Assembly: GCA_963843555.1 (NCBI GenBank)
Contig: CAWJKV010000003.1
Coordinates: 1-64,000, forward strand
Origin: an uncultured Methanosarcinales archaeon
GTDB taxonomy: Archaea; Halobacteriota; Methanosarcinia; Methanotrichales; Methanotrichaceae
DNA: 64,000 nucleotides
Direction of reading: 5' to 3'
Every line of letters starts with the position of its first letter. Position 1 is the first letter of the stretch. Position numbers: made by a program. Below are positions 12,001 to 27,000 of the stretch, piece after piece.

Positions 12001-15000
12001 ATCGGCAAAGATATTGGCCGGCCCAAGAAATCATATGATTCAAAAGGAGCTCAGATTGTTGTTTTGGCCTATGCTCGCTACAGATTTGGGGCACGGATGC
12101 TTGAGGCAGCGATAAGGAAGATCTATAACTTGCATATCTCATAATCGTATCCACATGTATCTGAAAGCATCCGGGCCCTCGGCAAGATGTATCTTCCGGC
12201 GGGCCTCCTTCACAGGCATCTTGCCGCCATTTGCAGCAAGTAGGGCCCTTCAAGATCTTAAGTCGCGCAGGCTTTGACTAAGGACTGATGGAGGACTGAG
12301 GCCCTTCGTGGTCAAAGCTATCCAAGCATCCGTCTGAAAATATTGAAAATACGGACAAGTTCGCTATGGGAACCCACGGGCCTTGAGTTAATCGGAGTCC
12401 TTAAAAAAAATCTCTTCATCCGAAGGCTTTTTCATTGCTTACTCCGCGTGCTATAGAATCGAGGGAATGATATGAGAGCTATCCAATGGCTGATATTTTT
12501 GCTAGTTTTAACCGCACCGGTATCCGTAAGTGCAATGGCTATTGATTCTGTGGACCGGCATTCCACTTCAAATGAGTCCGATTCTTTGGCCTGGCGCAAT
12601 TCAGGTGATGCTTATTATATTATTGGCCAGTATAACGAATCCATCGAGGCCTATGATAGAGCCGTAGAGCTCGATCCCAGGAATGTGGACGTATGGATTG
12701 CCAAAGGCAATGTGCTCAATGACCTCGGTAGGTATAACGAGTCTCTAGAATCTTTTGATAAAGCCCTCAAACTGGATTCCGGGGATGCAGCAGCCTGGAA
12801 TAATAAAGGAATCGCTCTTTCAAAATTAGGCTACTATTTGGAAGGTGTCAGATGCTACGAAGAAGCCATAAATATAAATCCGAAATACGCAGAAATTTGG
12901 GTTAACAAAGGAAATGCCCTTTCGGATCTGGGTAGACACAATGAATCTCTTGAAAGCTATTACAAGGCAATTGAGCTCAATCTGCATTATGCCAGTGCCT
13001 GGTATAATCTGGGTAGCGAACTTGATGAATTGGGCCGTTACAATGAGGCTATAGAAGCCTTTGACAAAGCCATCGAGATAGATCCAAAGGATTCTGAAGC
13101 CTGGAATAACAAAGGAAATGCCCTTCGTGATTTGGGTAGGTATAATGAGTCCATCCAATCTTATGAAAGAGCTACCGAGCTGGATCCCAAGTTGGCACTG
13201 GCATTCAAAAATGAATCGTATGCTCAAGCTTGGTCAAAAATTGTTTGGGATGTGAATAATAATGAATCATTGGAACGCATAAAATCCGAAGGGTGCGAAA
13301 TAATTTCAGGACTGCACAGTTTCATGCTCTCCTTGATATGTGTTCGATGGCTATTTGGTTATTTCTTTCGTCGCCAGGGCCGCTCTTCTATCTTTCGCTG
13401 ATGGTCATTGGGTAAAGCCTGAAGGTCTACATGTCCTGTGGGTGTTTCTTGACTTGATGCCAAGTTTATCCTCTTGATTTTTTACTCACCGATCCACATC
13501 CGGGTAACGCCATTACCTGTTGATTCGGTGATTTTAAAAATGGAGATGATATACATATGATTGAATGGCAGGCCCGCCAGCGGTTGCCCTCGAACTCGCA
13601 CGCCAGTTAATCCCGTGCACCATTGGCGCTCTTGTTTGCTCGGCGGCATCATCGCATATATTTCCTCGCGATAATAACATCAAAAAACTCTGACCTTGTT
13701 ACTGAAACCGGATGGTTTTATGGCCTTGAAATGCAGTCAGGACAACCCGAGACGGTCTTTTATGGATCGTATATCTGCCTGCATCTGTCTGAATTGCATT
13801 GCATACCCCGGTTGGACATCTTCTCTCACGCCTTTGATCTCTTCCAGAACCTGAGGGATTGCATCGGTATTCCCTTTCACTGCCAGGAGGATTGGAATCG
13901 CCTTATTCATTTGAGATGCCGTGTTTATCGATGCAAATTGCCACAACGGCATGACGGCCCCGGTGTAGTCCTCGGATCTCACATTATCCACTTTAGCGAG
14001 CGGCGGTCGCTCCAACATGGCTGAGTTATAGAATTTCGTGGTTCTCTGCTCGTCACCTTCGACCAGGGCTATAACTGCCTGTTGTCCATCTTCATCGTCA
14101 TTGTAGACCTCAAAACCTCGGAGGGCCAGGCGCATTGCTAACTCAGCGAGGTAGGGCCTGTAGCCCACGTCATGTACTTTTTGACCTGTGATCGTTATTT
14201 TTAACTTCATGCTCATCATGATAAGTGTTCGTTGGGCTATTTGATCATTTCTCAAGTTGCCAGGATCTCTTCTATCTTTCGCCTTCATGGTCTTTGGGTA
14301 AAGCCTGAAGGTCTGCATCTCTCTGTGGGTGTTTCTAGACCTGGTGCCAAGTTTATCCTCTTAATTTTTTTAGTCGCCGATCCGTATCCGTTCAATGCCG
14401 TTACTTGTTGTATTCGACGGGATTTTAAGAATAGGAATAAATATACACAGGGTTAAATGGCAGGCGCGCCAGCGGTTGCCCTCGAGCTCGCGCGCCAGTT
14501 AATCCCGATGCATCCTCCTGCCCTTATACCTATAAGCGACAGTTACCCGCAGCAGGTCTGCTCCCTTCCGGGCCTGAACCGGTTTGGTGCAGGGAAAAGA
14601 TTGCACCTGTTTTGAACCTCATGCCGCAATAGTATTGCCGAAAGAGAGTTGTGGAAGTTGAAGGGTATGAACTGAAAATCGTCAGCCGTTATAGGTGATA
14701 TAAACCCGATTATGAAAGGGCCGCATTCTAGAGATTTTAAGATCAGATTTTAGAGATATTACTAAAACTAGACATATAAAAGTATCTATATTATTGACTA
14801 TTATCATACAGGTTTCTTAAAATATTTTGTGCACTTTCAGGAAGGAAATAGGACAGAAATAGACTGATTAAGATTCCAACTAGAATCGCGATGCTAAAAC
14901 TGAGAAGCGTTCCGAATAAGATGTATTCGCTGGTTTTTCGTTCATTGAATCTCAAGATTGATTTGGCAGTAACTAATAGTCCTATTGCAGTATATTGGTG

Positions 15001-24000: not shown

Positions 24001-27000
24001 GATTAGAAAAAGCTAAAGAAGAATTAGCTGATGCTCTTGAGAAAAATGATACATATGGGCGAACGAAGAAAGTTTTAAATGATGCAAATAATTGGATTTT
24101 AGCAACAAGTGCAGGGACGTTAGTATTAATTTTAAATGATTATAAACTGTTCTTATTAAATTCACCCACCCAAGAAAAGATATACCAACTTCCAGGAAAG
24201 TATTATTTTATTAGTTCAATAATTATTCTAATCTATATCTGTGATAGTATTAGGATATAATAAAATTCAGCTTATAAAAAGAGATTGGATCATGAATATG
24301 TCAATAGATAGTTTATCTATATTGAGGGATGAGATACTGGATCCAGAGAATAAGACAAAGGATATAGAAGCATATACAAATGAAAGTATTACAGAAATCT
24401 ACGAATCATGGCGTGCAGGCCATGAGATAATAGTGAATCGGGATAAAACTCTGATAGTCGGAATTTTTATATATATTATTGGCATCATAGTTTATGGATC
24501 ATACTTCAGTGGTATATATATTAATTATAATTAATTATGTAGCGCTATTATGAAAATATAGGGCGGCAACCGTCTTTTTGTAATCTTAAACCCAAGTCTC
24601 CAAACAGGCTCTTTTGAGCGAATCTCGCCCAGAAACAACAACTCAGAGTGGGAAGTACATGAAGAGAATGAGGCGGGGCAACGATTGAGATCGAATGAAA
24701 TCGATTTCATATTGCCAATAACGAGACGCTCAGCGGCGAGGAGTTTGAAATCGATCTGAAAATGTGACGGGCAATATATTGATGATGATTAGGTTCATTG
24801 TTTTTGTCGCATCGCCGCGATCTCAGCATATTTCGCTTGAAAACATTCTACTGCCTTCTTTGCCCTTCGATATCGATCCTTCATCATTTCCGCTATTTGC
24901 TCTTCGTCAAAGCCCGACTCTGTAGAATCGAAAACTCCTGCAAAAGTTCCAGATCGGCATCCGCTAAGGTCTGCAAGCACCGATTCTACGATATCTGGTT
25001 CAGTGGTCGGTTGTTCTTCCAGCCTATCGATCCGCTTCTGCAGCGTCTTAATCGCAGTCATTGCTTGGCCTCCGCGCCCGACTGCTTTTCTAGGGCTGCT
25101 GGCCGTGCTCAGTCAGCCAGCGTTCGAACCTCTTCAAAGCCGGATTAACATCCTTAATAATTTGGCGATTCCAGTTCACCTTTTGCCCAGTCATTTTCAG
25201 CCACCGAATTCCTCGAAGGGAATGCGCTTACCCGTCGTTCTCGGTGAAGACTTCGAAAACAGAATCAATAAAAGAAGGGCATGTTCTAGATTCTTAACGG
25301 CTCGCTAAGCGACAAGATCGAACAGCGCAGCGGTTTGATCTTATCGTTCTCGGTGAAGACTTCGAAAACAGAATCAATAAATAAGAGTTAAATGGCAGGC
25401 CCGCCAGCGGTTGCCCTCGAACTCGCGCGCCAGTTAATCCCGATGCGTCCTCCTCCCCTTATACCTATAAGCGACAGTTACCCGCAGTAGGTCTGCTCCC
25501 TTCCGGGCCTGAACCGGTTCCTGCAATTATGGTACACAGATCTTCCTTCAGGAAGACCCATGGACCGGTGCTATCCCTACAGGACGGAGAATCATTGTCT
25601 GCACCTGGACTGAACGCGCAGCGCCCAAAGTCTTCCGCCAGCTTCGCCCCCCGCTTATCGACGATTTCGGGTTATAGGTGACGCCGAACCACCCGGACTG
25701 CCCGCCACTTTTAACATTGAGGTGAGTAGCTATAAAGCTAACGCAAAAGAGGGAGAAATTATGGCAGATGACATGGACGCAAATATGGGTTTCATCATGG
25801 GAAGCAGGCAGCGCGAAAGGGTAGTTCAGATTTTGGGCTCCAAGGGCAAGATGTCGGCAGAGAAGGTCGCCAAGGTTGAGCACATCCCGGCATCGATGGT
25901 CAATAAGATCCTGGCTGAGATGGCTGAGAAGAATCTCGTTACCGAGGACACCGGCGTCTGGTACCTGACTGAAGCCGGGCAAGAGATCGAGAAGGAGATG
26001 AAGAAGAGAGGGTGAAAACTTGTTCCTCGCCATTTAGTGCGGGTTCGTGCGCGGGTCACAGGAATCCGACATTTATTTTCGTAGTCCTCTGTACGCTCGT
26101 GCCTCTGTGGTGTTCTTTCATAAATCCTCTGGTTTGAATATGCCGCTACGAATATTAACCGCAGAGACGCAGAGTTCGCAGAGACGCGATATCTTCTTTA
26201 TCACTATTCCATAACCTGAAGCCCAGAAAATTGCCTTTCATGATAGTTCTCCGTTCGTCGTCCTCCGTGCGCTCTGCGACTCTGCGGTTTTCTTCCGTAC
26301 CCACCAGAGTTTAATTATCCCGTGATGAATATTAACCGCCTAGATAAAGAGCCCACAGAGGAAGCGCCGCCCGGGCGACCTCGATCCTAAAGGAAATCAA
26401 AAAAATATCATGGCCTACGAGCGCGACTGATCGCCAGCGCGAAGCAGGTGCTCCAGCTTCTCCACACAGCTCCAGGTCAGGATCAGCTGGGCAAGACCGA
26501 TGGCGTTGACGTACTCCTGCCTCCTGTCGCTGATGATGGCGTAAGTACCCAGTGAGTCGCCCAGCTTCTTCTCCAGCTCCGCAATCATGGACTGATGAAT
26601 CTCGCCATCAACAGTCATGATGCCCACATTCTTGCCGTAGTAATCGTCCCGCTGAAATTCAATGGAAAACTCGTGCTCGGACCTGTGCAGTATCTTGCTG
26701 AGATCAATGGTCAGACCAACCTCAGAGACAGGCTGATCGAGGGTCGGAAGTATCAGCCGCACCGAGTACCAATCGATGGCAGGCTCCGCCTGCAGCGGGG
26801 AGGGATGAAACCGGGAATCCTGGATCTTGATCACGATCTCGGCATAGATCTTCTGGATGTCTACGTAGAGTTTGTAATCGGGCTCGCGCTGCAGGATCTC
26901 TGCCATCACCTGATCAGGGTTGTAGCCCCGCTCGCCCACATCGCGTCTCACCTTCCAGAGCCGTTTTACAGACCGGGAGGGGTCCACAAAGATCTTGAAA

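Follow-up and report, generated by a model that had tools for sequence, protein, structure and literature searches.

The 3' end of an archaeal SRP RNA gene as the probable attachment site of a XerA-like tyrosine integrase clade in Methanothrix

Introduction

Classical (type II) archaeal tyrosine integrases generate islands at tRNA genes in which an intact integrase gene lies next to attL, the 3' part of the RNA gene is restored by attP, and a displaced copy is found at the far end, as set out in the available text of a 2021 review (PMC8371274). In that text the terms "SRP" and "7S RNA" do not occur, and the non-tRNA sites listed in its section 19 are intergenic or protein-coding only. SRP RNA genes are published targets in bacteria. 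The integrase-encoding Enterococcus prophage phiEf11 has its attB in the SRP RNA gene ffs (PMC12540744), and Type I-F3b Tn7-CRISPR-Cas transposons use an ffs att site (bioRxiv 10.1101/2020.07.02.184150). According to the accessible portions of these reports, phiEf11 uses a 27-nt core in the bacterial 4.5S RNA gene and restores the 3' end only in part (12 of the last 17 nt are altered), and the Tn7 elements, which take the gene as a conserved landing mark, transpose downstream of it in an RNA-guided manner, without 3'-end replacement or a tyrosine integrase.

The locus described here lies in a window of 64,000 nucleotides (contig CAWJKV010000003.1) from an uncultured Methanosarcinales archaeon of the family Methanotrichaceae (G000, 82% complete). 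An earlier note had read repeats of the SRP RNA gene 3' end as att scars of two or three integrations.

Results

The SRP RNA gene and its partial copies

25393..25707, minus strand: intact SRP (7S) RNA gene (Rfam RF01857, 191.4 bits)
17974..18066, minus strand: SRP copy, positions 223-315, 93 nt, junction of elements 1 and 2 (nhmmer)
14458..14584, minus strand: SRP copy, positions 189-315, 127 nt (nhmmer)
13566..13616, minus strand: SRP copy, positions 265-315, 51 nt (nhmmer)

The gene call was reproduced and is the sole Rfam match within the window. The three further copies in the orientation of the gene were recovered by blastn at 14435-14584 (93%, E 3e-58), 17940-18065 (90%, E 2e-42) and 13551-13615 (92%, E 4e-19), with start-to-start spacings of 7419, 3516 and 892. 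They had been taken to hold about 127 nt of SRP RNA each, which does not agree with the nhmmer lengths listed above. The G+C content between the copies is 39% (7.3 kb), 41.5% (3.4 kb) and 46.5% (0.84 kb), compared to 52-54% in the flanks; therefore, the low G+C content ascribed to these stretches is clear for the 7.3-kb segment alone. Recurrence across the genus was confirmed with a larger count than the 10 genomes given before: the last 128 nt of the gene have at least two matches in 15 of the 58 other genomes. In 12 of these 15 a partial copy has non-SRP DNA upstream, and in G007, G024 and G040 the copies lie at contig ends. Displaced or inverted SRP copies were also seen in G042, G046, G002 and on contig C5 of G000, where blastn detects a fifth, more decayed fragment (181115-181180, 77%).

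Repeats in a metagenome-assembled genome may raise the suspicion of an assembly artefact. However, the copies differ from the resident gene at 1-5 positions, the same junctions are present in G042 (94%), and contigs of runs X1, X2 and X3 extend from 14036, 14073 and 14227, respectively, to 14516, across a left end and a copy, so that an artefact has next to no probability. In the contigs of 4 of the 24 listed runs, the core flank is represented along with parts of elements 2 and 3, whereas 18313-24923 is almost entirely missing; no contig bridges this region, and none contains a clean excision joint.

An integrase clade associated with the SRP RNA gene

A clade of tyrosine integrases, with an SH-aLRT support of 99 in a tree from a quick search only, is tied to the SRP RNA gene. 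An SRP RNA gene or copy lies at most 300 bp upstream in 25 of the 29 distinct loci, several of which are 97-100% alike and thus not independent, and the remaining four have no upstream DNA. It is on the same strand in 23 of the 25 and an inverted partial copy in two; adjacency was checked with Rfam at 20 loci. The outgroup integrases adjoin SRP in 0/31 and a tRNA gene in 10/31 cases. Loci with less than 240 aa matched in one piece (L114, L115, L122, L132, L133, L135-L139) were left out of the tree, as was L117, the protein of which is identical to that of L116. Two of these fragments, L122 and L135, lack their 5' halves and have more than 1 kb of upstream DNA without SRP. The nearest relatives of the clade adjoin tRNA-Leu, -Gly, -Pro and -Arg genes, and therefore it represents a clean case of target switching. 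For the sister group (G062, G058, G053) no Rfam match that could indicate a target was found across 34 kb.

The R-K-H-R-H-Y residues are present in 39-40 of 40 clade sequences, which suggests catalytic activity, and the genes are whole, starting 80-165 bp past the SRP 3' end. None is split by attP, as would be the case for suicidal integrases of the SSV1/pTN3 type. Archaeal XerA acts at dif. By sequence, XerA provides the closest solved structures (PDB 5hxy, E 4.5e-39; 4a8e, E 2.8e-32), and both proteins have about 290 aa, but unlike XerA the clade has a patchy distribution, is mobile and is linked to SRP. It was detected only in the archaeal family of Methanothrix and its relatives. A genome-contig scan with a single clade protein returned its own locus only, and none of 12 matches in a viral-contig scan (27-32% identity) is a clade member.

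Element 1

18067..25392, minus strand: element 1, 7.3 kb, 39% G+C, integrase deleted (SRP copies, end profiles, G+C)
25195..25392, minus strand: left end of element 1, subtype I spacer ahead of the integrase start (left-end profile)
25096..25194, minus strand: SRP-targeting tyrosine integrase remnant, codons 1-33 (similarity to clade integrases)
23197..23829, plus strand: TPR protein, cargo (Pfam)
22571..23104, plus strand: DUF559 / MTES_1575 nuclease-fold protein (Pfam)
21730..22137, minus strand: serine resolvase fragment, cargo (PF00239 positions 48-144 of 145)
19751..21529, plus strand: SIR2-like protein, 592 aa, candidate defence gene (Pfam SIR2_2, 1.1e-14; PADLOC PDC-S65, 1.4e-62)
18088..18205, minus strand: conserved right arm with CAGAATCAATAT motif (right-arm profile, alignment)

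The earlier note found no intact integrase in the islands, and indeed none of the SRP clade was found in the 82% complete genome; nevertheless, a remnant exists. It is the single match of the clade profile inside the window, and is 75% identical to P0001 and 84% (26/31) to the integrase of L110. A left-end profile built from 22 intact elements has five matches in the 2.68-Mb genome, all behind SRP copies of the window, the one of element 1 lying at 25272-25171 (E 3.6e-14, whole genome searched). It matches 12 of 30 SRP loci of the genus, counting the own locus and one training genome, and 0/30 SRP loci of family f8. This left end contains an exact 38-bp duplication (25235-25272 / 25344-25381, repeat family D13). 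The right-arm profile, from six other genomes, has a single match in the whole genome, before the 18066 copy (E 2e-14), and the CAGAATCAATAT motif of the arm is an inverted copy of a left-end motif (inverted repeats I12/I13).

The SIR2_2, resolvase and DUF559 genes and the PDC-S65 match reported before were all found again. The resolvase was considered as the recombinase and rejected, because it is a fragment without the N-terminal 47 profile positions and the att layout fits the tyrosine clade; resolvase-related pieces near SRP also occur in G041 and G043.

Elements 2-4 and the outer limit of the stack

14585..17973, minus strand: element 2 remnant (left-end profile match 16643-16592; Pfam)
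13617..14457, minus strand: element 3 remnant (subtype II left end 14444-14368; acylphosphatase-domain gene 13737-14318)
13319..13565, minus strand: element 4 remnant (subtype II left end 13554-13480)
11794..13318, plus strand: decayed IS with 27-bp terminal inverted repeats (TGT...ACA; I1)
11615..11749, plus strand: small Lys-rich ORF, outer limit of the stack (homologous stretch in G008, G023, G043)

In element 2 the subtype I left end is interrupted by a 1.3-kb DsbD-gene insert (17940-16643) and followed by SatD-like and DUF3307 genes, which have 97-98% identical counterparts behind SRP in G042. In element 4 a second acylphosphatase-type gene is cut off by the IS, with only its start left. 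The IS contains a TPR passenger gene and an HTH fragment, and a target duplication was not seen in its flanks. The stack reaches 11794 and is not confined to 13551..25707, the range given in the earlier note. The Lys-rich ORF is probably the native neighbour of the SRP RNA gene: a homologous stretch follows SRP after about 60 bp in G008, after 3.5 kb in G023 and after about 15 kb in G043, a link seen in only 4 of 59 genomes. The four left ends over 13.6 kb would correspond to three or four insertions, rather than two or three.

The same features would also arise if the SRP 3' end and its trailer had been duplicated locally in tandem and foreign genes had gathered later, without site-specific integration, a source of the repeats that the earlier note had itself considered. 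The missing intact integrase would fit, as would the 82% similarity over 309 bp between 13321-13619 and 14206-14512, due to which elements 3 and 4 could indeed be one duplication. However, in other genomes the trailers, of two subtypes, are found as spacers ahead of clade integrases, the right arm is common to six other genomes, and the end of element 4 resembles G003 (86.6%) more than it resembles element 3. Together with the clade-specific SRP adjacency, which largely refutes local duplication, this makes it very unlikely.

Complete relatives and a near-empty site

Complete elements with an intact integrase and a distal SRP copy were found at L036 (3.7 kb) and L131 (6.4 kb), both with a G+C content below that of their own flanks. 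L105, L107 and L120 have the order arm, core, SRP 3' end and integrase, i.e. the layout of an attP or a tandem junction. G008 has a near-empty site, with the outer neighbour close to SRP as noted above, but about 45 nt resembling the left end (judged by eye) are retained, and thus it is not a clean empty site.

Primase/helicase matches are present in L116, L118, L123 and L154, and a weak one in L128; they are absent from the window remnants and from the two complete elements. Virion structural genes were not detected among 30 selected proteins (PHROGs) or 124 proteins (Pfam), most loci being short contigs. Judged from small size and gene content, an integrase plus a primase-helicase of their own, the relatives would qualify as integrative plasmids or satellite-like elements.

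The crossover site

25468..25480, minus strand: putative crossover core TAA-CTGTCGC-TTA, SRP 228-240 (partial-copy left borders; Rfam structure line)

The core follows closely on the GGAA-loop helix, where the long closing 3' strand begins. It is conserved and single-copy in the genus, with the variants CTGTCGC, CTATCGC and CAGTCGC in 43 genes. We infer crossover here because partial copies tend to have their left borders at SRP 221-228; as a consequence, each element would have to resupply about 80-90 nt, a quarter of the RNA. The left identity borders vary, however (188-189, 200, 221-228 and 239-267), and a single crossover site alone does not explain the spread from 188 to 267.

Beyond the main reading, the copy that begins at 188-189 may have been produced by a second crossover site or recombinase acting within the GGAA-loop helix, at the palindrome GAACCGGTTC (188-197). 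This copy lacks the standard right arm, and its border is shared, together with the upstream flank, by G000, G042 and G003. However, these three genomes have one ancestor, and therefore the border counts as one event; a second SRP-adjacent integrase is not among the best 150 of 208 PF00589 matches in the genus, and att identity blocks often run past the core, according to the available text of PMC8371274. A second site is thus a tentative and rather unlikely addition. A right arm is not recognisable at the 13616 copy either.

Sequence constraints on the copies

Retention of the partial copies as small RNAs or SRP regulators would be in line with their pairing, since no net consensus pair is lost and 46 of 47 are kept in all three. 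Compatible pairing is, however, expected of former working 3' ends, and the copies, which are of unequal length, have neither the 5' part nor the promoter and are missing from most genomes, so that such a role is extremely unlikely. The pairing test, which is based on the alignment fold, gave chances of 0.044, 0.086 and 0.52 for no net pair loss under random changes, and it is weak, because the consensus structure was built from these same genes and the 14584 copy loses one pair and gains another. Alleles present in other SRP RNA genes are not significantly enriched in the copies (P 0.12-0.38). The idea that the elements shuffle SRP 3' ends from one species to another was considered and is unsupported: positions 241-315 track 151-227 (rho 0.76, controls 0.41-0.52; 42 genes), and a divergent 3' part occurs in 3 of 59 close pairs, compared to 15 of 95 in a control split.

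Discussion

Very probably, the SRP RNA gene is the attB of a dedicated XerA-like tyrosine integrase clade carried by small integrative elements, and the stack was built by repeated integration. The att-scar reading of the earlier note thus gains an SRP-adjacent clade, a 33-codon remnant and conserved ends, and its number of insertions has to be changed. Besides the integrase gene, the attP would comprise a right and a left arm, with the core near SRP 228-240 and the last ~80 nt of the SRP RNA between them. Upon integration the SRP RNA gene would be restored with the 3' part of the element, and the previous 3' part would be moved to the far end. The present gene would then be the attL of the newest element, with a host 5' part and an element-supplied 3' part. 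Repeated integration at the restored gene would lead to a stack with the newest element adjoining the gene, and afterwards deletions would have taken the integrase and most of the body from each element, while the IS would have removed the far end of the oldest.

In comparison to the classical islands, the integrase with the R-K-H-R-H-Y residues beside the att end is seen in the intact relatives, the window having kept only its first codons, and the far-end direct repeat of the target 3' part with a restored target is complete in L036 and L131. The mechanism is alike, but no tRNA gene is near the stack; the target is SRP RNA, and the restored stretch has ~80-90 nt. The differences to phiEf11, as far as its accessible description goes, are an archaeal 7S RNA, full restoration, non-viral-looking elements and tandem stacking. 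The earlier note regarded SRP targeting in archaea as undescribed, as far as could be found. An archaeal case was indeed not found in the literature searched, including the available text of the 2021 review, but the bacterial targeting of ffs is published; therefore, what is new is the archaeal case, together with the site used. SRP RNA would thus join the list of archaeal integration targets, with a named enzyme clade that island finders based on tRNA genes would miss. Given the conserved, single-copy site in the genus, an integrase together with its attP is a candidate for a site-specific insertion tool in methanogens that use acetate.

A more far-reaching scenario is possible, though we regard it as improbable: satellites or integrative plasmids with a primase-helicase may have switched from tRNA to 7S RNA, each insertion rebuilding the last quarter of an essential RNA with a host-matched allele, and excision or reshuffling of integrase-less cassettes that keep the core and arms, like element 1, may take place in trans. 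In that case defence and accessory cassettes would be stacked in the manner of an integron at the SRP locus of Methanothrix, and its att copies would drive chromosome rearrangement.

With respect to the proposed hotspot for defence islands, only the 7.3-kb island of the window carries a candidate, PDC-S65 being the sole PADLOC match with a strong E-value among 11 proteins. The relatives at the same site carry many. The SRP locus would be a hotspot for mining candidate anti-virus genes of this group. In a hand-picked set without a control, 17 of 81 proteins from the relatives match PADLOC at 1e-8, including KwaA+KwaB, AriA+AriB, type IIG R-M and GmrSD-like systems.

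Partial copies of the SRP RNA gene and element ends

The only SRP (7S) RNA gene of the window is on the minus strand (25393-25707; 191.4 bits, Rfam). As the earlier note had stated, its 3' end recurs downstream in three partial copies of the same orientation, which are too similar to it to be explained by chance (E-values 1e-19 to 1e-58). A profile built from 43 full SRP genes gave the SRP positions of the copies. The G+C content between the copies is 39%, 41.5% and 46.5%, compared to 52-54% in the flanks, and the gene calls in these islands were reproduced. The stack is real, and it is highly probable that it represents tandem att scars of an SRP-RNA-targeting clade of tyrosine integrases of Methanotrichaceae.

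Partial SRP copies and stacked elements (1 = next to the gene, presumably the newest)
25392-18067 (-): element 1, with a left end (integrase side) and a right arm as outermost features
18066-17974 (-): SRP copy, SRP positions 223-315 (profile)
17973-14585 (-): element 2, subtype I left end, then SatD-like and DUF3307 genes
14584-14458 (-): SRP copy, SRP positions 189-315 (profile)
14457-13617 (-): element 3, subtype II left end and acylphosphatase gene
13616-13566 (-): SRP copy, SRP positions 265-315 (profile)
13565-13319 (-): element 4, second subtype II left end, truncated by an IS

The copies had been read as att sites of two or three integrations, and the att-site part of this reading gains support from an integrase remnant of the clade and from element ends beside the copies. 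Codons 4-35 of the integrase of G018, another genome of the genus Methanothrix, match 25194-25102 with 75% identity (tblastn). This remnant is encoded on the strand of the SRP gene, 199 bp downstream of it, and 26/31 residues are identical to the protein of locus L110. A left-end DNA profile, which covers the 96 nt surrounding the start of the integrase and derives from 22 intact elements in other genomes, matches the whole genome only five times, always in the window.

Matches to the left-end DNA profile
25381-25344 (-): left end, local duplicate
25272-25171 (-): left end
16643-16592 (-): left end
14444-14368 (-): left end
13554-13480 (-): left end

A right-arm profile, derived from the sequence that precedes the distal SRP copy in six other genomes, matches the whole genome once (18205-18088). 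Setting the duplicate aside, the stack thus has four left ends and a single intact right arm. Upstream of the integrase start lies a GGTAA-N5-TTAC repeat, and right arm and left end have a common motif, inverted relative to each other; arm-type and autoregulatory roles of these motifs are putative.

The SRP-adjacent integrase clade

The earlier note had seen no intact integrase. This holds for the window, which contains only a stub, but whole genes are present behind SRP in relatives. In 59 Methanothrix genomes, SRP positions were compared with PF00589 matches; three of these genomes (G018, G002, G037) have whole tyrosine integrase genes directly behind SRP. At family level (105 genomes), one more case came from G070, a member of another genus. 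Among the 20 best loci, Rfam placed SRP beside four close relatives (62-100% identity); the other 16 had no SRP (0/16) and nine had a tRNA match. About 50 further metagenome proteins had at least 57% identity, and a metagenome scan with their alignment yielded 37 loci.

A quick tree groups the close relatives in a single branch (SH-aLRT 99) of 29 distinct loci, which are not 29 independent events because many are near-identical. SRP is present at most 300 bp upstream in 25 of these, 23 times on the same strand and twice as an inverted partial copy; in the remaining four the upstream DNA is too short. The outgroup (31 distinct loci) has SRP upstream in 0/31 and tRNA in 10/31. Catalytic residues are conserved in 39-40 of 40 aligned integrases. 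Among 392 genomes of the class, full genes above 539 bits occur only in the same four genomes; the next-best score is 346 bits, and the best outside the family 126 bits. Broken copies lie behind SRP in two more genera (G060, G100). In 30 SRP loci of family f8, neither an integrase nor a left-end match was present, and none of 12 hits in viral contigs belonged to the clade.

In L112 (128-23) and L113 (605-518) the integrase is at the far end of the element and reads away from the inverted partial SRP copy, the opposite of the layout in the other 23 loci. In the sister group of the clade (L077, L080, L091, from G062, G058, G053) no tRNA or other Rfam RNA adjoins. In L124 (1279-2139), L123, L125, L129 and L133 the SRP-type integrase is immediately followed by another integrase, of outgroup type, or by a 3' fragment of one.

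The earlier note regarded SRP RNA as an undescribed archaeal target. Full-text literature searches found no archaeal case, with subscription papers largely outside their scope, and the portions available of a 2021 review of archaeal tyrosine recombinases (PMC8371274) mention neither 'SRP' nor '7S RNA'. 'SRP' is absent from the main text of two TIGER/Islander-based papers, the supplements or database of which may list such islands. For bacteria, targeting of ffs has already been published: the gene serves phage phiEf11 as attB and is also predicted to be targeted in S. pneumoniae (PMC12540744), and it is a CAST site (bioRxiv 2020.07.02.184150).

Probable crossover site

Partial copies with visible foreign DNA upstream most frequently start at SRP 221-228. 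The shortest intact border is SRP 228 (L113), and continuous identity begins at 231 in L112. The border sequence TAA-CTGTCGC-TTA, an inverted triplet around 7 bp, is probably the crossover core; this arrangement fits a tyrosine-recombinase core, with its 7-bp overlap (PMC8371274). According to the Rfam structure line, the long closing strand on the 3' side begins here, right after the GGAA-loop helix; with a core at this position, the incoming element would have to supply the last ~80 nt of the SRP RNA. Native genes keep 45.7/47 cross pairs on average and mixed pairs 44.7/47, thus the 3' parts are nearly interchangeable. They track the host and not the integrase, because a shuffling test of SRP 3' ends was negative and subtype I and II elements (L105, L107, L120) have one common 3' allele. 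Crossover at the core only partly explains the deviating borders (SRP 188-189, 200, 239-267); deletion accounts for the short copies with late borders, and a second crossover site possibly underlies the long copy.

Anatomy and cargo of the elements

From the gene outwards, element 1 contains the left end, the integrase stub, orphan ORFs, TPR, DUF559, a resolvase fragment, SIR2, pentapeptide fragments and the right arm. The left end of element 2 is interrupted by a DsbD gene, its spacer ending at 17940 and picking up again at 16642. SatD-like and DUF3307 genes lie directly behind SRP in G042. The SatD-like ORF (15578-16063) may have a broken 5' part, as the ORFs of G042 and G046 encode 231-232 aa and this one 161 aa. 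Between it and the split left end, a 30-bp unit is present in three to four copies (16422-16532).

In G042, G003, G050 and G028, too, the acylphosphatase gene of element 3 follows SRP or an SRP copy. Many Methanothrix genomes have, no more than a few kb from SRP, a gene of a second acylphosphatase-like family (N-terminus MxRLTAFISGMVQ; L045, L046, L040, L041, L051, L055, L056, L070). Over 309 bp, elements 3 and 4 show 82% identity to each other. The pair could represent a single duplication, but element 4 is closer to G003 (86.6%) than to element 3. The IS that cuts the left end of element 4 has 27-bp inverted repeats and no target duplication was seen at its flanks, which suggests that it removed the rest of the element. 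This decayed IS (11794-13318) carries a TPR passenger gene, and its TGT...ACA ends presumably resemble those of IS481.

The outer neighbour of the stack is a small, unannotated Lys-rich ORF (11615-11749, 44 aa), in a DNA region conserved in most genomes of the genus. Its distance to SRP is ~60 bp in G008, 3.5 kb in G023 and ~15 kb in G043; in the other genomes of the genus this link is broken. Palindromic intergenic repeats are present at 26078-26360 and 27510-27903; the former is MITE- or REP-like, with relatives on nine or more contigs of this genome.

Complete elements with intact integrase are 3.7 kb (L036) and 6.4 kb (L131) long. Primase or primase-helicase genes occur in five loci, and no virion genes were seen among the proteins scanned. 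Cargo of relatives at the SRP site includes KwaA+KwaB, AriA+AriB, a type IIG R-M protein, a GmrSD-like protein and several PDC candidates, alongside many non-defence genes; PADLOC matched 17 of 81 hand-picked proteins of relatives. From these hand-picked proteins, the proposed defence hotspot is plausible for the genus, while in the window it rests on one candidate SIR2 gene.

A fifth, decayed SRP 3' fragment lies on another contig of the genome (L001:9181-9116, C5:181115-181180). The spacer after it shows 79% identity to the L104 element's left end, and the same junction recurs in G042 (C12). In G046, one SRP copy is inverted relative to the others and 131 kb away from them. These displaced and inverted copies suggest rearrangement through att copies.
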